Notes under the pieces: model-generated
Databases searched by the model: none
Seen by the model: only the letters and a program-made list of their open reading frames with translations
Told to the model about the DNA's origin: nothing
Shown here: in pieces, positions 557 to 61,474 of the stretch
Numbering within the stretch: the first letter of the stretch is position 1
Layout of the letters: each line of letters begins with the position of its first letter
DNA from: an uncultured Acidobacteriota bacterium
GTDB taxonomy: Bacteria; Acidobacteriota; UBA6911
Assembly: GCA_963809485.1 (NCBI GenBank)
Contig: CAWEJX010000020.1
Span: 768,001-832,000, forward strand
Reading direction: 5' to 3'
DNA length: 64,000 nt
Program-made: the position numbers and the translations under genes

Positions 557-1350
557 TGTTGCTCCCCTCCCCCCACCTTCCATACGGGATTTCTTTTCGG
601 TACAACGGTGCCGTTGTCCACTAGTCCCAGATTCAGCCAATGGTCATTCCGGAGGTTCACGTCATAGCCTTCGGTTTCTTTCTGATCCGGCATCTGAGCA
701 ACAAACTTGATCGCCATCATCGGGCAGGTCTCAACGCAAGCCTGCTTGCCGCCGGGGCCCCCTTTTTCATTCCAGTATGGGGTATCAAGGCACAGATCGC
801 ATTTGGAGGATTTTCCTTTGCCGTCGATAACAACCCAGACCGGCCTGTGCGGCTGCTGAGGACACATTTTGATGCAGGTTTTGCATCCGATGCATTTCTG
901 GCTGTCAATCCTCCGGACGTTGCCGTTTGCAGCGTCCACGAAGGCTGCGCCGGTCGGGCAACTCTGAACGCAGACCGGCGCCTTGCACTGCCGGCAGGGA
1001 GCCATCTTGACATCGTTGGGGAACTTGCCGAAAGAGTCCTGCATGATCTGGATGCGCGCTAGCGAAAGATTCTGGACTCCGTAATGGACAAGCGAGCAGC
1101 TGAGCATACACGTCGTGCAGCCTGCGCATTTCTTGCTGTCGTAAACCAGGTAGCCTTCGGATGCGGGATAAGTAGGTCCCGCAGCCTCCGGTGATGGCGC
1201 CACCGCAGTTTCCGCAACCGCCTTTGCAGGCGTTGTTGCGATCAATGCGTCAACGGCGACAACCGTACCCCCCGTGACCAGAAAGTCACGTCTTGACAGC
1301 TGCTTCTTGGCAGCAGCTTCTTTGGCTTCAGCCTTTTTATCTTCAGGCAT
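553..1350 (-). CDS. Tat-signal 4Fe-4S dicluster (DmsB/AorA-like) electron-transfer subunit
   Basis: SRRDFL twin-arginine motif; CxxCxxCxxxC, CRQCKAPVCVQSCP, CIGCKTCIKMCP and KCDLC...ACVETCP motifs; GGAG RBS. Confidence 0.9.
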   Translation of the reverse strand: MPEDKKAEAKEAAAKKQLSRRDFLVTGGTVVAVDALIATTPAKAVAETAVAPSPEAAGPTYPASEGYLVYDSKKCAGCTTCMLSCSLVHYGVQNLSLARIQIMQDSFGKFPNDVKMAPCRQCKAPVCVQSCPTGAAFVDAANGNVRRIDSQKCIGCKTCIKMCPQQPHRPVWVVIDGKGKSSKCDLCLDTPYWNEKGGPGGKQACVETCPMMAIKFVAQMPDQKETEGYDVNLRNDHWLNLGLVDNGTVVPKRNPVWKVGGGEQQ

Positions 1351-1529
1351 GTAAAAACTCCTTTACATAGCAAACATTTTGAAAGCCGTTATGAGAAGGA
1401 TCCGATGACGACCTTCCGTTTAATGCTTTGCGCCCCGGCAGGCAGAAATAATTTGAAACTGCCTCCATTTTTCTCAGTGCATTAATGGAACCATCGCTCT
1501 CACATCTGACACAAAATCCGGGCCTAATG

Positions 1530-1675
1530 TCAACTATACGTTCCGATACGCTTTTGGGGATCGTGTCGAAGGTGGCAGTGGTCGTCAGTATCGCCTCATT
1601 ATAGATTTCAGTTATGGCCTCGATGTCTGAGAATCCTGCGTTTCTGAATGTCAGTTGCGAGTCAAACTGTTTCAT
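1530..1675 (-). pseudogene. Truncated GNAT (phosphinothricin N-acetyltransferase-like) N-terminal fragment
   Basis: MKQFDSQLTFRNAGFSDIEAITEIYNEAILTTTATFDTIPKS matches the YncA/Pat N-terminus; similarity is lost after about 48 aa; 3' boundary approximate. Confidence 0.65.
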
Positions 1676-2059
1676 AGGACCACCTTCTCTCCCTGCAAAC
1701 CCGCCTTGGGGTTCAATCCTAAATCTCTCCTGCCAATTCACGAAAGGAATATTGGAGATGGAGCTGCGGCTTCGGCATAAGGAATGACTTTTTTCTTGCA
1801 ACGGCAATAATCCCGGTCGATCATTCGTTGAGAATCAGATCAGGTGGCGAGCGAGCGACCATTCCCGGCCCCGGAGGGTAAGATCCCTGGGCACAAGCCA
1901 GGAGCCAGGGGCAGGTGAAGAACGTAGACTGAGGAGAGATAGGTCCGTTTGCCGGATACAGTCACAGCAATATCCGTTCTTCAATCTGCATTTCTAATAG
2001 GTCGATGCGCAGCAAGCATCTCATAGTTTGGGCATTATCCCAATAAAGGAGGAAACCTA

Positions 2060-2701
2060 ATGGAAGTTTCAGAGGCAATTCAAAGGAGGGTGACGGTAAG
2101 GCGGTGGATGCAGAAGCCGGTGGAAAAAGAAAAGATAATGCGCGTGATGGAAGCCGGCAGAAGAGCGCCGTCGTGGGGAAATGTACAGCCCTGGCGATAT
2201 GTGGTCGTCCAGGACAGAGCGAGAATAGAGGAATTGGCAAAAACGGCCGGGGGACAGCCGCAGATCAGCACTGCTCCCGTCATCATCGTTTGCTGCGGCG
2301 TAGCCGAAGCATTCTCCCAAAAGTTGCACCGGGAATCCCTGAAACAACTCATCGAAGCAGGCGTGATGGACTGGCCGGACGAACTGCTGGATAACATGGT
2401 TCTGGGAAGCGATCTGTTTGCGCCCTACCGGCTGGGGGAACAGGCGATGAAAATCAAGGCCGGCGAACAGATCATGATTTCCGTTGCCTATATGACGCTG
2501 GAAGCCTTGAATCAGGGGCTGGGGAGCTGCTGGGCAGGAGCCATTGCCACCAAAGATGCTCATTCGATGCTGAAATTGCCGGAGAGCTGGTTTGTGCATG
2601 ACTTTTTGCTTTTGGGCTATCCCGATGAGGATCCCAAACCGAGACCGCGCAAGCCCATCACGGGAATCGTTTTTTGGGAAAGCGTGGAGCCGCAGGCTTA
2701 G
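2060..2701 (+). CDS. Nitroreductase family protein
   Basis: RRVTVRRW, RAPSWGNVQPWRYVVV, GLGSCWAG, LLGYP and RPRKP motifs; AAGGAGG RBS. Confidence 0.92.
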   Translation: MEVSEAIQRRVTVRRWMQKPVEKEKIMRVMEAGRRAPSWGNVQPWRYVVVQDRARIEELAKTAGGQPQISTAPVIIVCCGVAEAFSQKLHRESLKQLIEAGVMDWPDELLDNMVLGSDLFAPYRLGEQAMKIKAGEQIMISVAYMTLEALNQGLGSCWAGAIATKDAHSMLKLPESWFVHDFLLLGYPDEDPKPRPRKPITGIVFWESVEPQA

Positions 2702-2746
2702 TTGTTTTCGGCTGGTGAGGCACTGGATTCGCCAAAGTCCTGGGCG

Positions 2747-3853
2747 CTAGAAGACGTTCTGCTCCTCCCATTCCTCCGGCGTGCGGCAGAAGGAAAAGGC
2801 AAAATCGTCATCCATGTTGCAGCCATCCAGGTGCCAGAATCCGGGTCCGAACCCGCCATCGGCCATCGCCTGACACAAGGGACAATCGTCATCGATCGGG
2901 ATATCATCTTCGGACGAGACCCACGGCAGCCTTATGCGTTCATACTCGATCAGGCAGGAAGGGCTGTTGCCGCCATGCTCGGGATCCGGGGAATCCATCC
3001 AATCTGCCTTTACCTGATCCAGGCGCGCTATTTCGTCGGGTATCGATACATCCCGTTGCTCCTGCATCCGTTTCCAGCAATTCTCAATCAGCATCCGTAC
3101 CAGATCGTAATAGATCACGATTTCATGCGTGCCAAAACCGGCAAATCGATAGGCATGGGAATCCTTCTTAAGGCACGGAGCCGGTTCCTTGAGCCGGCTC
3201 CACTGCGCCTCCCGGGACTGCAGGTCGAAATCAATATCTTCCTGTTTCATGAGAAGGACTTCTCTCGGCGGCAAGCCGCGCAAATCCTCGCGGGGCGTCA
3301 TCAGCCATTTCACATGAATCTCCCTGACAGGGTCCTCCTTGTTTGATGCACGGGCGGCCCGGCACTCGTTGGCAACAAACTCCGCGAGGGCGCCATAGAG
3401 AACCCCCCGTGAATCGAGCGGTGGAACAGCCGTCCGTTCGGCACGCCGCTGATCGGCGATCGCTCTATATTCAACCACGGAGCTGAGAAAGAGCCAATCA
3501 TGGGGAACTCTGTACGGCAGCCACATTTCGGTGAGTTCCCGGCCATTGTGGTATTGAACTTCTCCCTCCGGCATCAGGACCGAGTATGACGATTCTGCAG
3601 CAAAAACCCGTGCGGCCAGGTCCACGAAGATGATCCCGGCATCCCACGGCTCTGGGTTGACACCGTCCGAGAACCCGTCCAGAAACCTGCTGTCGCCTGC
3701 AGGCTTGGTGAACCGGGTTATGGCGTGCTCAAGTTCCTCGATTGTCTCCGGTTCGGCCGCCAGCCCGGCCAGGATTGAATCGGCAAGAAAACCGTGAAGG
3801 GTGCCGTTGATGGCACGGCTTGCATCCATGATGTTGATTCTGAGTTCGCTCAT
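2747..3853 (-). CDS. Hypothetical protein with C-terminal CPLC...HLDGC putative metal site
   Basis: Long ORF; GGAGGAGGA RBS before ATG 3853 (MSELRINI); acidic, Cys-containing C-terminus. Confidence 0.75.
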   Translation of the reverse strand: MSELRINIMDASRAINGTLHGFLADSILAGLAAEPETIEELEHAITRFTKPAGDSRFLDGFSDGVNPEPWDAGIIFVDLAARVFAAESSYSVLMPEGEVQYHNGRELTEMWLPYRVPHDWLFLSSVVEYRAIADQRRAERTAVPPLDSRGVLYGALAEFVANECRAARASNKEDPVREIHVKWLMTPREDLRGLPPREVLLMKQEDIDFDLQSREAQWSRLKEPAPCLKKDSHAYRFAGFGTHEIVIYYDLVRMLIENCWKRMQEQRDVSIPDEIARLDQVKADWMDSPDPEHGGNSPSCLIEYERIRLPWVSSEDDIPIDDDCPLCQAMADGGFGPGFWHLDGCNMDDDFAFSFCRTPEEWEEQNVF

Positions 3854-4106
3854 CGGGAAATCCTCCTCCGGACATGAATGTCCACTCAGGTGACCGTTCA
3901 ACCTCTGTTTCAACGGTTCCACAGAGGCATTCAGACTATCTAATGATCCCCCCCGGATTTGAGCCAGATTATTTTTGCGTCAAAGGTCCATCCAAAGCAT
4001 GCTGAGCCGTAGTGAAAACGTATTGTGCCAACATGCAGCGTTTTTTGCTAAGATAGGCGACGTAATCCATCCCTGCTTTTACGAATTCTTAACAAGGAGA
4101 AACTCT

Positions 4107-5476: not shown

Positions 5477-5876
5477 AGTCAGGTGCCTCCGGCAATGCCG
5501 GAGGCTTGAAAGATTTGAGCCCCTCAAAGCGGTTGGAGGAGTTACGCCGGTCTTGAACGCTGACTTACGCGGGCAAAAGCCGATGAGGCGCTTCCGATCC
5601 CCGCAGGGGCCAGCGCTCCGCGCTGGACAGTTATCTGCGGCGGCACTGTGGCAAGCGCCGTGCGGCAAGGAGATGAAGGGTTTGAGAAACCGGGCGTTTG
5701 CCACAGTGCCGCCGCAGATAACTCCATCGGAAGCGCCTCATCGGCTTTTGCTCGCCGATCCTCGCCGAACAAATCGGTGATCAGCGCTTTTATCAGCGTT
5801 TCTCAGCGTTTCAAAATACGGAACTGTCAAACTCTTGGAGTCCCCCGGCAGAGCCGGGGGTTTACCAATGTAATTA
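5477..5876. mobile_element. ~400-bp non-autonomous IS200/IS605-like palindromic element, copy 1 (full length)
   Basis: AGTCAGG...CCTCCGGC-aat-GCCGGAGG hairpin, nested 26-bp and 31-bp inverted repeats, CCCCGGCAGAGCCGGGG hairpin, ...AATGTAATTA end; near-identical to the other copies. Confidence 0.85.
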
Positions 5877-6172
5877 CAATGGCAGTGCACGTTCATTTCA
5901 TCACTTTCTCCTTCCATCCAACGGATCCCAAAATCCCATTGGCGCCTCCAAAAACGGACCTGATTTGCGGCACCCGCTTGTCGCTGCAGCATATCTTCCG
6001 GGCCGGCTCCGGCGAAGAGCATCCCGGGGAAGAGGCATCTGTTAGATTTTACAGTACATTATTTCTTCCAATTTCCTTTACAATAAGTCAAACGACTTTT
6101 TCATTGCACCAGCGGTCGACGAATACGAGTGATGTGAGGAACACCGGCTGGGAAAAAAGGAGATACTTCGCT

Positions 6173-14385: not shown

Positions 14386-14553
14386 AGCTTATGGGTCGTT
14401 CAAGCGCGTTTTTTGCCTTTTGTCGTCCGGGCCTCTGATAAAGAGTGATATGTAAACTGAATAAAACTCCAGAAACTCAATTTGCATATCAGGCAAAAAT
14501 CATTTTATGCGTGAAAGAGTCGGGAAGGAAACAGAAATAGGAGATTCGCCTTA
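14386..14553. repeat. Island direct repeat, copy A
   Basis: Highly similar to 17816-18076 (GGTCGTTCAAGCGCGTTTTTTGCC...GTGATATGTAAACTGA...GCGTGAAAGAGTCGG...ACAGAAATAGG). Confidence 0.85.
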
Positions 14554-17815: not shown

Positions 17816-18076
17816 AGCTTATAGGTCGTTCAAGCGCGTTTTTTGCCTTTTGTCGTCCGAGGCTTTGATAAGGAAAAGGGATCCTTCAGAAGCCGCGCAA
17901 CAAGCGATAACGTTTTACTAACAAAATGCTGTTTGGGCGGTTTCTAAAAGATTTTCTTGAAAAAGTGATATGTAAACTGAAAAAAACTCCAGAAACTCAA
18001 TTTGCAAATCAGGCAAAAATCACTTTATGCGTGAAAGAGTCGGAAAGGAAACAGAAATAGGCCGGGCTTCGCCTTA
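17816..18076. repeat. Island direct repeat, copy B (contains about 90 bp extra internal sequence)
   Basis: Aligns to 14386-14553 on both sides of an insert at about 17872-17962. Confidence 0.85.
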
Positions 18077-18276: not shown

Positions 18277-18363
18277 GTCCGCCTTCGCCTTCGCTTCGCT
18301 CGGCTACGGCGGACAGCCTTCGCTAAAGCTCCGGCTTGCCAGCCGAAGCTTTAGCGAAGGCTG
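18277..18363. repeat. REP-like tandem hairpins abutting the tRNA 3' end
   Basis: GTCCGCC...GGCGGAC, then CAGCCTTCGCTAAAGCTCCGGCT-tgcc-AGCCGAAGCTTTAGCGAAGGCTG. Confidence 0.7.
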
Positions 18364-18454
18364 GCGGAGAGGGGGGGATTCGAACCCCCGACACCGGTTT
18401 TGCCAGTGTAACTGCTTAGCAGGCAGCCCTGTTCGGCCACTCCAGCACCTCTCC
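18362..18454 (-). tRNA. tRNA-Ser(GCT)
   Basis: Reverse complement GGAGAGG...GCTGC-CT-GCT-AA-GCAGT, long variable arm, GGTTCGAATCC T-arm, encoded CCA; 93 nt. Confidence 0.96.
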
Positions 18455-20352: not shown

Positions 20353-21090
20353 ATGACTAAGCTGGGAGTCAACATCGATCACATCGCTACCATCCGCCAG
20401 GCCCGGCAGGCCCTGGAACCAGATCCCGTGGCCGCGGCCATTGTGGCCGAACTGGCAGGAGCCGACGGCATTACGGTCCACTTGCGCAAAGACCGCCGGC
20501 ATATTCAGGACAGCGATGTGCGCCGGTTACGCGAGACGGTGACAACCCGTTTGAATCTTGAAATGGCGGCAACTCCCGAAATGCTTCAGATAGCCCTCCA
20601 GCTTCGCCCGGACCAGGTGACATTGGTCCCGGAAAAAGAGAGCGAGGTCACCACTCAAGGCGGATTGAGCATCGCCGGTTCCGTCAAGCCTATCGCTGCC
20701 GCCGTCCGAAATCTTGCAAAGGGCGGAATACAGGTCAGCCTATTCATCGATCCGGATCCCGAGCAAATTGACGCCTCTGCGGATACCGGGATTTCAATGA
20801 TCGAGCTGAACACGCGCGCATATTCGGAAGCCTCCCCCAAGAGCCCCGATCTGGCCGGGACCGAATTCAAGAGAGAGCTGACAAAGATAGTTCAGGCGGC
20901 CGGGCTGGCCCGTAAAAAAGGGCTGAAGGTCCTTGCAGGTCACGGTCTGACTTACCGCAACGTGGGATTTATCTCGAGCATCCCGGAAATCGAAGAGCTT
21001 AATATCGGGCATAACATCATCGCGCGCGCTGTTCTGGTCGGCCTGGACCGCGCCGTCCGCGAAATGCTGCACGCCATGGAAACAAAATGA
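20353..21090 (+). CDS. pdxJ: Pyridoxine 5'-phosphate synthase
   Basis: [43 protein letters not shown]. Confidence 0.97.
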
Positions 21091-21099
21091 CGAATGACG

Positions 21100-21502
21100 A
21101 GTCAGGTACCTCCGGCAAAGCCGGAGGCTTGAAAGATTTGAACCGCTCAAAGCGGTTGGACTAGTTACGCCGGTCTTGAACGCTGACTTACGCGGGCAAA
21201 AGCCGATGAGGCGCTTCCGATCCCCGCAGGGGCCAGCGCTCCGCGCTGGACAGTTTTCTGCGGCGGCACTGTGGCAAGCGCCGTGAGGCAAGGAGATGAA
21301 GGGTATGAGAAACCGGGCGTTTGCCACAGTGCCGCCGCAGAAAACTTCATCGGAAGCGCCTCATCGGCTTTTGCTCGCCGACCTTCGCCGAACAAATCGG
21401 CGTTTGTCAGCGCTTTTATCAGCGTTTCTCAGCGTTTCAAAACACGGAGCTGTCAAACTCTTTGAGTCCCCCGGCAGAGCCGGGGATTTACTAATGTAAT
21501 TA
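21100..21502. mobile_element. ~400-bp IS200/IS605-like palindromic element, copy 2 (full length)
   Basis: Same termini and nested inverted repeats as copy 1. Confidence 0.85.
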
Positions 21503-21621
21503 AACATTCGCCGCCTCAATTCATGATTCGTAAAAGTGTCGAGTAACCTTTATACCAATTTAGCCAAAGCTGCTGGTTTCTGGGTTGTTTTTTCAATTCG
21601 TAATTCGTCATTCGTAAGGAT

Positions 21622-34452: not shown

Positions 34453-34680
34453 AGTCAGGCACCTCCGGCAAAGCCCGAGGCTTGAAAGATTTGAACCGCT
34501 CAAAGCGATTGGAGGAGTTACGCCGGTCTTGAACGCTGACTTACGCGGGCAAAAGCCGATGAGGCGCTTCCGATCCCCGCAGGGGCCAGCGCTTTTATCA
34601 GCATTTCTCAGCGTTTCAAAATGCGGAGCTGTCAAACTCTTTGAGTCCCCCGGCAGAGCCGGGGTTTACCAATGTAATTA
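34453..34680. mobile_element. Palindromic element copy 3 (internal deletion between CAGCGCT microhomologies)
   Basis: Both ends retained; core removed; terminal TTA coincides with the MFS gene stop codon. Confidence 0.85.
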
Positions 34681-38437: not shown

Positions 38438-38829
38438 AGTCAGGTGCCTCGGGCAAAGCCGGAGGCTTGAAAGATTTGAACCGCTTCAAGCGGTTGGACT
38501 AGTTACGCCGGCTTTGAACGCTGACTTACGCGGGCAAAAGCCGATGAGGCGCTTCCGATCCCCGCAGGGGCCAGCGCTCCGCGCTGGACAGTTTTCTGCG
38601 GCGGCACTGTGGCAAGCGCCGTGCGGCAAGGAGATGAAGGGTATGAGAAACCGGGCGTTTGCCACAGTGCCGCCGCAGAAAACTCCATCGGAAGCGCCTC
38701 ATCGGCTTTTGCTCGCCGACCCCTCGCCGAACAAATCGGCGTTTGTCAGCGCTTTTATCAGCGTTTCTCAGCGTTTCAAAATACGGAACTGTCAAACTCT
38801 TTGAGTGCCCCGGCAAAACCGGGGTTTTG
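38438..38829. mobile_element. Palindromic element copy 4 (near full length, right tip diverged)
   Basis: Same nested inverted repeats; lacks the terminal AATGTAATTA. Confidence 0.85.
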
Positions 38830-38859
38830 CTTCAACAAAATTCAAAAGGATGGGCAAAG

Positions 38860-42495: not shown

Positions 42496-42675
42496 ACCGC
42501 TCAAAGCGGTTGGAGGAGTTACGCTGGTCCTGAACGCTGACTTACGCGGGCAAAAGCCGACCCTCGCCGAACAAATCGGCGTTTGTCAGCGCTTTTGTCA
42601 GCGTATCTCAGCGTTTCAAAATACGGAGCTGTCAAACTCTATGAGTCCCCCGGCAAAGCCATGGATTTGCCAATG
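42496..42675. mobile_element. Palindromic element copy 5 (left hairpin and core deleted)
   Basis: ACCGCTCAAAGCGGTT...GCAAAAGCCGA joined to CCCTCGCCGAAC at a GCCGA microhomology. Confidence 0.8.
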
Positions 42676-42768
42676 AAAAGCAGGCAGCCGCTTCATGAAA
42701 TGGCATGGGCAGGCTGCATCCCTGTATTATGGGCAATTCAAGCTGGCGGGCTTGCGGCCACAGGGTTT

Positions 42769-51855: not shown

Positions 51856-52061
51856 AGTCAGGCTTGAAAGATTGGAACCGCTCAAAGCGGTTGGAGGAGT
51901 TATGCTGGTCTTGAACGCTGACTTACGCGGGCAAAAGCCGATGAGGCGCTTCCGATCCCCGCCGAACAAATCGTTTGTCAGCGTATCTCAGCGTTTCAAA
52001 ATACGAAGCTGTCAAACTCTATGAGTCCCCCGGCAGAGCCGAGAGTTTACCAATAGAATTA
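51856..52061. mobile_element. Palindromic element copy 6 (left hairpin and core deleted)
   Basis: AGTCAGG joined to CTTGAAAG; CCGATCCCCG joined to CCGAACAAAT; ends ...AATAGAATTA. Confidence 0.8.
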
Positions 52062-61071: not shown

Positions 61072-61474
61072 AGTCAGGGACCTCCGGTAAAGCCGGAGGC
61101 TTGAAAGATTTGAACCGCTCAAAGCGGTTGGACTAGTTACGCCGGTCTTGAACGCTGACTTACGCGGGCAAAAGCCGATGAGGCGCTTCCGATCCCCGCA
61201 GGGGCCAGCGCTCCGCGCTGAACAGTTTTCTGCGGCGGCACTGTGGCAAGCGCCGTGCGGCAAGGAGATGAAGGGTATGAGAAACCGGGCGTTTGCCACA
61301 GTGCCGCCGCAGAAAACTCCATCGGAAGCGCCTCATCGGCTTTTGCTCACCGACCCTCGCCGAACAAATCGGCGTTTGTCAGCGCTTTTATCAGCGTTTC
61401 TCAGCGTTTCAAAATACGGAGCTGTCAAACTCTTTGAGTCCCCCGGCAGAGCCGGGGGTTTACCAATGTAATTA
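61072..61474. mobile_element. Palindromic element copy 7 (full length)
   Basis: Inverted repeats 61168-61193/61321-61346 and 61224-61254/61288-61318; both terminal hairpins present. Confidence 0.85.

Follow-up and report, generated by a model that had tools for sequence, protein, structure and literature searches.

A transposase-less IS200-type repeat in an Acidobacteriota genome, with paired stem changes of probable DNA-level origin in its nested palindrome

The hairpin and the repeat family that carries it

We have analyzed a stretch of 64,000 nucleotides (the window) from an Acidobacteriota MAG of 6.04 Mb in 21 contigs, 95.7% complete (G000). Close to its start there is an inverted repeat of 31 bp, in which positions 5629-5659 (AGTTATCTGCGGCGGCACTGTGGCAAGCGCC) pair with 5693-5723 (GGCGTTTGCCACAGTGCCGCCGCAGATAACT) around a loop of 33 nt at 5660-5692. 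The hairpin is not free-standing; it is the apex of a non-coding repeat of ~398 bp, of which the window contains seven copies plus one fragment. The first copy has the following features, LE and RE being the left and right ends of the element:

5477..5871, minus strand: copy 1, full-length; its top strand is the minus strand, with LE at the high-coordinate end and RE at the low-coordinate end
5485..5505, minus strand: RE subterminal hairpin GCCTCCGGC-AAT-GCCGGAGGC, 8 nt away from the end of the element, AGTCAGGT; a homologous hairpin lies downstream of tnpA in 72 of the 80 loci described below
5569..5598: left arm of P1, the outer stem of the central palindromic module
5599..5626: two small hairpins, CCCCGCAGGGG and CCAGCGCTCCGCGCTGG, which render the central module asymmetric; its orientation relative to the element is constant
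5629..5659, no strand assigned: inner stem, left arm, carrying A5633, half of a double change
5660..5692: apical loop of 33 nt, form A in copy 1; the reverse complement (form B) is found in 29 of 87 full-length copies
5693..5723, no strand assigned: inner stem, right arm, carrying T5719, the other half of the double change
5726..5755: outer stem P1 of the central palindromic module, right arm
5781..5808: three direct TCAGCG repeats (at 5781, 5793 and 5803), which pair with CGCTGA of the left module in the fold
5842..5860, minus strand: LE subterminal hairpin CCCCCGGC-AGA-GCCGGGGG, 11 nt from the end; 27 loci whose RE is properly spaced have an LE-like match upstream of the tnpA gene
5872..5876, minus strand: target pentanucleotide, AATTA in the + reading and TAATT on the top strand; pre-existing flank, outside the element

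The remaining copies of the window are these:

21100..21497, minus strand: copy 2, full-length, the reference copy; target AATTA at 21498-21502
34453..34675, minus strand: copy 3, a short form without the central module; the corresponding site in G006 (a sister species, see below) is empty
38438..38831, minus strand: copy 4, full-length; G006 has a terminator-like hairpin resident at this site, into which the LE hairpin of the copy is merged
42496..42676, minus strand: copy 5, short and truncated; an orthologous insertion, since G006 has a copy too
51860..52056, minus strand: copy 6, a short form that has lost the RE hairpin; G006 has no copy at this site
61072..61469, minus strand: copy 7, full-length; target AATTA at 61470-61474

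Copy 1 carries A5633/T5719 where the other full-length copies of the window (2, 4 and 7) carry T/A, as seen both by direct reading and by motif search: copy 1 has AGTTATCTGCGG on its two arms, whereas copies 2, 4 and 7 (matches at 21252, 38590 and 61224) have AGTTTTCTGCGG on theirs. These arm motifs gave 8 matches against 0.56 expected, a number that none of 100 shuffles reached. The initial annotation of this DNA had described the double change together with a G-T pair (AAGCGCC/GGCGTTT) in stem P3 and a 5' start made of GTCAGG, a GC-rich hairpin and GGCTTG, and all of them are there, the start as AGTCAGG with the GC hairpin and GGCTTG at 5477-5509. What they mean, namely whether the + strand folds as a functional RNA or single-stranded DNA kept in shape by compensatory changes, is a different matter that is taken up below.

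The repeat is very abundant in the source genome. BLAST with its three modules, requiring at least 80% of the length, retrieved 263 left, 106 central and 254 right modules, and looser settings gave 268 left and 248 right ends; arithmetic from the end counts puts the family at ~1% of the 6-Mb genome. There were 199 end pairs separated by 420 bp or less, 87 of them ~400 bp long and 112 short, without the central palindrome. Among 41 genomes, the source included, the full element was present only in the source genome and in a congener (G006, the sister species, 93% identity), and several others contained the left-hairpin segment only. The copies are young, with ~1% private divergence. In contigs from three wetland metagenome runs the element ends accumulate a summed depth of ~1,350-4,000, against ~5 in the flanks; contigs break exactly at 21099-21101 and contain the joint of the short form (21201>21377). 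Repeats like this one break MAG assemblies, and having the family defined aids annotation. Another run, presumed to be RNA, gave 11 reads at 90-95% likeness, which are uninformative on expression.

Ends, target site and parent insertion sequence

The limits of the element are sharp. In the + reading, 254 left junctions carry no information (0 bits) beyond AGTCAGG, and neither do 241 right junctions beyond AATTA. AGTCAGG... at one terminus is not the complement of ...CCAATGT at the other, and so there are no terminal inverted repeats. There are instead near-identical subterminal GC hairpins, one per end and in direct orientation, CCTCCGGC-AAA-GCCGGAGG at 9 nt from one end and the LE hairpin listed above at the other. 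The pentanucleotide AATTA followed 122 of 226 right ends, AATCA another 26 and AATTG 8 (156 of 226 together), the background of AATTA in the genome being 0.043%. A target-site duplication was sought in 199 pairs and found in none for k-mers of 5 or longer; at k=4 there was 1 of 199 against 1.1 expected, and shorter k-mers of the flanks matched at control level.

Empty sites have settled where the element stops. We had initially regarded the right flank as unconstrained, with no target motif, a view overturned by the empty sites, because the last 5 nt within the initial boundary turned out to be the target. Three orthologous sites in the comparison with the sister species (copies 3 and 6 of the window, and the G006 locus L063) already have an AATTA-like sequence; two of them are clean and the site of copy 6 has diverged. 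The AATTA-like sequence is also retained at five paralogous empty sites, four of them clear, where copies had inserted into another repeat family of the source genome and could be compared with uninterrupted paralogues. The end of the element is thereby placed at ...CCAATGT, and the insertion lies 3' of TAATT, without duplication. Among 20 loci of the sister species that were checked for empty sites one was clean (L063), one was empty with 31+23 extra nucleotides (L046), and another was complex (L047). Four of the 20 align end to end with the source genome and are therefore shared insertions, two more appear to be shared, and the remainder were without usable flanks. On the top strand, i.e., in the minus reading, the layout is TAATT, then the LE (ACATTGGTAAA and its hairpin), the nested palindrome, and finally the RE (its hairpin and TACCTGACT).

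The orientation of the copies is strongly biased, with 60+/3- on contig C20, 0+/20- on C6 and 22+/1- on C1; long ORFs on C20, taken as a control, were balanced (310+/276-). In each contig the orientation of the element is opposite in sign to the GC skew, and more than 90% of the copies are co-oriented with replication. A single 16S gene was assembled, and it lies on the minus strand of C20. On C7 the orientation switches from 4+/0- at 400-450 kb to 0+/2- at 450-500 kb, the flip falling between 441 and 490 kb, with dnaA at 454,563. Put together, the orientation bias, the GC skew, the strand of the 16S gene and the switch at dnaA indicate that the minus reading of the element is leading-strand sequence, that is, the lagging-strand template. 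The active top strand of the transposon is the reverse complement of the strand that was folded in the initial annotation, and what had been taken for a 5' start is the right end of the transposon in reverse complement.

Ends of this kind flank a transposase gene in another congener (G002). Its genome has a Y1_Tnp gene (105.5 bits) preceded by TAATT and an LE 83% identical to that of the element, and followed in the predicted orientation by an RE 87% identical. The gene lies at a contig end and is without its N-terminus, and the contig stops inside the RE. A scan with this TnpA protein confirmed 569 loci from many phyla, of which the best 80 were kept; on the tnpA strand of these best 80, RE-like matches were found downstream in 72, LE-like matches in 32 and both in 31. 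Four of the 31 LE matches are actually the RE hairpin, leaving 27 loci with both ends properly spaced (607-761 bp). One Desulfobacterales MAG has four copies whose LE directly follows TAATT, each with a different flank upstream of it. The only gene carried by the parent IS group is tnpA. The element keeps ~55-75 nt of each parent end, and where the parent has tnpA it has a nested palindrome of ~280 nt. Since its ends are homologous to those flanking tnpA, the ~398-bp repeat is a non-autonomous, transposase-less derivative of a widespread IS200-type IS of the IS200/IS605 family.

An intact cognate tnpA was not found in the source genome, an assembly 95.7% complete, where the four Y1_Tnp matches include none flanked by the ends of the element; these four loci share nothing significant with it (best word 12 nt, E 0.06) and their hairpins differ. 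The nearest IS200-type gene (C6:298547) has 51% to the G002 TnpA, an in-frame TAG and unrelated flanks, and its orthologue in the sister species diverges at the C-terminus and appears frameshifted. As candidates for an autonomous copy we inspected the 19 left-right end pairs 420-7000 bp apart in the source genome, and the sole recurrent long form was due to the insertion of an IS4-type IS, unrelated to the element, into the LE hairpin. Movement would then proceed by TnpA-catalysed single-strand "peel and paste", with the transposase supplied in trans and excision presumably via a single-strand circle. Contigs from two of the four runs examined, both of them wetland metagenomes, contain, at a depth of 5-6, a right-end-to-left-end junction without AATTA, which could be the junction of a transposon circle or a tandem insertion at a resident TAATT. 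Apart from one spurious pattern match, no tandem right-end/left-end junction was found in the source genome.

Paired changes, mismatches and loop inversions

All 106 central modules were aligned and counted with our own scripts over the 71 stem pairs that lie outside the invertible zone (7,526 pair-cells). Compensated double changes were found in 9 cells, distributed over 8 copies, against 0.26 by chance (Poisson P ~1e-11). The paired changes first noticed in the window are thus real and exceed chance genome-wide. One double change is common to two copies (C1:13873 and C15:85868). The same alignment, which had been proposed as a check of the structured-RNA idea, gave as its other result that 95% of the stem changes are uncompensated, with 154 one-sided mismatches versus the 9 compensated cells (5.5% of the changed cells); gap cells were one-sided in 24 cases and two-sided in 4. 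Per site and copy, the inner arms had 0.011 rare-allele substitutions, the non-palindromic modules 0.013 and the loop 0.020. Such values do not agree with inner stems kept by compensatory change, as had been proposed, since the arms decay about as fast as unpaired sequence, and the stems probably look intact mainly because the copies are young. The arms of the outer stem had a lower rate (0.0065-0.0084), which may reflect some constraint or a conversion bias. Read on the + strand, the mismatch cells were A-C in 64 cases, G-T in 38 and other in 52, A-C exceeding G-T (p=0.013). Outside the central module there is an excess of G>A/T>C changes (237 vs 199), and as the A-C excess goes in the same direction we therefore ascribe it to a mutational asymmetry of co-oriented copies.

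The apex of the palindrome exists in two orientations. In 29 of the 87 full-length copies the 33-nt loop and the adjoining G-T mismatch appear as the reverse complement (form B). Inversion of the apex makes the G-T pair an A-C on the + strand in 28 of 106 modules, and in 8 of 106 the pair has become Watson-Crick. The argument that the G-T wobble betrays a functional + strand fails for this reason. Inversion of the whole central module was not found, all 102 modules with an identified left end being co-oriented with it. Both subfamilies of the element retain the palindrome, and form B belongs mostly to one of them (22 of 25 in one clade). On a weakly supported tree (0 starred branches) the loop state changes at least six times, and taken alone the tree is compatible with a single origin. 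Two form-B copies, on the other hand, have a fully A-type background at eight diagnostic sites, and their loops match the reverse-complemented A consensus, one exactly and the other with 2 differences, which indicates at least three inversion events. In the sole orthologous full-length pair (G006 C22 and source C20:675229) the loop has the same orientation in both species (1/1). In copy C20:1300516 both arms have lost the same 4 nt, beside a compensated pair, a concerted change at several sites.

The hairpin is the apex of the palindromic module of an IS200-derived non-autonomous element (a PATE or MITE), and we consider it likely that its paired changes come from copying of the arms at the DNA level and not from selection on an RNA. 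One arm of the quasipalindrome would be copied from the other, by template switching during replication or by hairpin-templated repair of the folded single strand, and the place for this could be the replication fork or, during transposition, the single-stranded intermediate in its folded state. The paired changes, the mirrored deletion and the inverted loops would all be made at the DNA level and not by selection on a folded RNA. It is the combination of loop inversion, mirrored deletion and arm homogenisation that leads us to attribute the paired changes to arm-to-arm copying. Template-switch correction of hairpins had been named in the initial annotation as the alternative explanation, and it is the one that the inversions, the arm-to-arm copying and the mirrored 4-nt deletion favour. 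Homogenised arms and inverted spacers are described as an outcome of template switching between inverted repeats (PMC8604942), and the footprints reported for RNA genes comprise compensatory changes made in one step, multiple compensatory changes and inverted loops, those of rRNA being mostly of 4 nt and up to 7-8 nt (PMC8794818).

The reading from which the work started, a + strand transcribed into a structured RNA (an omega/HEARO-like scaffold or a regulatory RNA) whose pairing is maintained by selection, appears to us very improbable. It can call upon the excess of paired changes, a fold of great stability and a family tie to IS200/IS605 that is real. The fold, a long nested rod at whose base the terminal hairpins lie, is however about equally good on both strands (-235 kcal/mol on the + and -232 on the minus, z -18.1 and -14.9), one third of the copies have the loop and its wobble pair inverted, and the predominance of A-C over G-T on the + strand is the opposite of what an RNA would predict; the large majority of stem changes, moreover, are uncompensated. 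We have not found support for a functional + strand in any of these data. Rfam, searched with the whole window at gathering score, gave only one tRNA; for 21050-21550 at E<=10 there were five weak matches (three miRNA-precursor models, one lncRNA exon and one snoRNA), none of them relevant, and no plausible match to the HEARO covariance model on either strand. The TnpB zinc-ribbon domain (PF07282) had 0 matches in the source genome, 95.7% complete, the control being positive in 8 of 14 genomes; RRXRR/IscB (PF14239) also had 0 matches there, but with a control that was silent too (0 of 14 genomes) this negative carries no weight. The parent group carries only tnpA. The suggestion of a HEARO/omega guide scaffold is not supported, and the link to IS200/IS605 stands at the level of DNA, as a transposase-less IS200-type element.

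Selection might act on the folded DNA itself. The nested palindrome would zip the top strand (the minus reading), once excised or exposed, into a rod that joins the LE and RE hairpins for TnpA, and lineages with restored pairing would transpose better. That either strand folds into the nested rod with the terminal hairpins at the base, the retention of the palindrome by both subfamilies, the double change common to C1:13873 and C15:85868 and the lowest rare-substitution rate in the outer-stem arms all go in this direction. We nevertheless find this rather unlikely, since the short forms are at least as numerous as the long ones (112 vs 87 among 199), so that the central module is not needed for spread, and 7 of the 9 double cells occur in one copy each and so arose after insertion. 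Inner arms decaying like unpaired modules and the persistence of 154 uncompensated changes also count against it, and loop inversion and the mirrored deletion would be left unexplained. A related and bolder proposal, to which we give a little less credit, is that the nested palindrome is an adaptation of a single-strand transposon, the rod forming in the exposed lagging-strand template and juxtaposing LE and RE for a scarce trans-acting TnpA while the arms "proof-read" each other, whenever the DNA is single-stranded, by template switching or mismatch repair, with the flip/flop loops as a by-product. The element would thus carry a spare copy of each arm from which to mend the other. If that were true, a bacterial mobile element would possess a structure that maintains itself, analogous to the flip/flop hairpins of parvovirus termini. 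Finally, two apical orientations between perfect inverted repeats, with flipping that appears recurrent, could bring to mind an inverton, i.e., a 33-nt segment flipped between the inverted arms by a site-specific recombinase as a phase-variable switch. Invertible segments driven by recombinases are far longer than the ~33-45 nt available here. Besides, the element is dispersed in ~100 mobile copies with unrelated neighbours, orientation largely follows the subfamilies (22 of 25 form B in one clade) and is not a random mix, and the orthologous locus is in the same state in two species, all of which make a switch of this kind exceedingly improbable.

Arm-to-arm copying at the DNA level, our preferred explanation, carries a caution, because in palindromic mobile DNA paired changes far above chance can coexist with no sign of selection at the RNA level, and they do not prove that an RNA is structured. 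Cheap discriminators are the orientation of the loop, mirrored indels and the asymmetry between G-T and A-C. The ~100 dated quasipalindromes of this genome, of which more than 90% share one replication strand, offer a natural data set on the rates of template switching and arm conversion versus point mutation.

Relation to known systems

The stem changes described here are like quasipalindrome template-switch mutations in their paired changes made in one step, the mirrored deletion plus substitution and the inversion of the loop (PMC8794818, PMC8604942, PMC7202029). They differ in the size of the loops, 33 nt here and mostly 4 nt in the rRNA cases reported (PMC8794818), and in that only footprints are seen in our case. 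HEARO and omega RNAs of IscB/TnpB are likewise encoded at the ends of IS200/IS605-family elements, with scaffolds that adjoin variable flanks, but here there is no covariance-model match, no TnpB domain in the genome and a tnpA-only parent group.

The REP/BIME sequences, partners of the RAYT Y1 transposases, are numerous hairpin repeats outside genes on which a Y1 HUH enzyme presumably acts when the DNA is single-stranded (PMC3333891), and the family resembles them in its abundance, its extragenic hairpins and the tie to an enzyme of that type. REPs, however, are units of 20-40 nt without LE/RE asymmetry or a fixed flanking pentanucleotide, and the ends of our element match those of IS200 and not the hairpins around the RAYT-like gene of the source genome (C15:225627).

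The likeness to the IS200-type IS, with IS608 and ISDra2 as models, extends to direct subterminal hairpins, the lack of inverted ends and of target duplication, a left end 3' of a fixed target (here TAATT), a top strand located on the lagging-strand template and homologous ends. IS608 is described as using only the top strand, which inserts into the lagging-strand template with its left end 3' of a fixed tetra- or pentanucleotide (PMC5027513). The differences are that the element is without tnpA and that its ~250-270 ends are far above the copy number typical of autonomous elements.

Transposase-less derivatives of IS200/IS605, the PATEs (palindrome-associated transposable elements), have been reported in Haloquadratum walsbyi and Halanaerobium hydrogeniformans (PMC3119063, PMC7290912, PMC10055086). 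The family described here is a high-copy IS200-derived PATE in Acidobacteriota, with a parent IS group found across many phyla. PATEs are non-coding, have IS200/IS605-type ends and a palindromic interior, and are presumed to be mobilised in trans. Our element shares with them the non-coding palindromic interior between ends of that type, and differs in its host phylum, in a different parent IS group, in its larger size (398 bp), in the two-level nesting of the palindrome and in an apex that occurs in both orientations.

The left-end hairpin of the element

Two observations concern the left-end (LE) hairpin of the ~398-bp non-autonomous IS200-type element. In copy 4 (window 38780-38840) a terminator-like hairpin, CCCCGGCAAAACCGGGGTTTTG, replaces the LE hairpin or is merged with it. 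This same hairpin is present in the sister species (G006) at the corresponding site, which is unoccupied by the element (C7:~18350-18410, L040), and this suggests that the state of copy 4 arose when two similar hairpins recombined or when the sequence between them was deleted.

The other observation involves an insertion sequence found in the source genome (G000), outside the window, in four near-identical copies:

G000:C20:242045-244444, 2.4-kb IS
G000:C4:338392-340790, 2.4-kb IS
G000:C7:51353-53752, 2.4-kb IS
G000:C7:1-2397, 2.4-kb IS

It has inverted ends (CTCGCTG.../...CAGCGAG) and an open frame of 767 aa that, judged by eye, looks like a candidate DDE transposase of the IS4/Tn5 type. Two separate copies of the element, one of the long form and one of the short, carry this IS at an identical point of the LE hairpin, accompanied by a 9-bp duplication, GGCAGAGCC. 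The LE hairpin may be a target of the IS.

Flanks, junctions and other repeats of the window

Directly after the target, CAATGGCA or CCATGGCA was found in three of 60 right flanks inspected, including that of copy 1 (window 5872-5890). Within this stretch the ATG at 5881 appears to be the start of the ORF downstream of copy 1, so that in some copies no more than a few nucleotides appear to separate the element from a start codon downstream.

In contigs from two wetland metagenome runs (X2 and X3; window 21100/21130 region) the right end (RE) of the element is joined straight to the LE, reading …ACCAATG-C-AGTCAGGTAC… with the AATTA target absent. The junction comes either from a transposon circle or from two tandem copies of the element in a related strain.

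Immediately upstream of a tRNA gene, the window also contains two pairs of direct repeats, one of 59 nt (92% identity) and one of 102 nt (95% identity):

14386-14541 and 17816-18061, direct repeat pairs, ~3.4-3.5 kb apart
18365-18454, minus strand, tRNA gene

They may derive from a duplication or together make up a small integrated element.

Transposase genes and a second repeat family

Two transposase-like genes of the source genome were noted:

L002 (G000:C6:297047-300400), locus 1501-1854, tnpA of IS200 type, the one most similar to the parent IS group
L003 (G000:C15:224127-227471), locus 1501-1845, minus strand, Y1 transposase-like gene, 153 aa

The former has an in-frame TAG in place of the tyrosine of the PKYR seen in relatives, and its orthologue in G006 (L066, 92% identity) differs at the C-terminus in a manner resembling a frameshift. 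The repeat family is present in these two genomes, and both may be without an active cognate transposase. The L003 gene is enclosed by arrays, with a period of ~143 bp, in which the hairpin CCGTCGC-tcac-GCGACGG alternates with CCCGGCCT-tgaa-AGGCCGGG. The gene resembles a RAYT that has a REP-like array of its own, and it is unrelated to the ~398-bp element.

A second dispersed repeat family is present in G000 in dozens of copies of 70-84% identity, and elements of the ~398-bp type are often inserted in its members. Examples, all outside the window, are:

G000:C8:143822-144025
G000:C20:1215330-1215535
G000:C14:62318-62482

This is probably another PATE family; its RE-like end, AAAGCCTCCGGCTCTGCCGGAGGATACTTACT, resembles a different subgroup within the same IS200 group.
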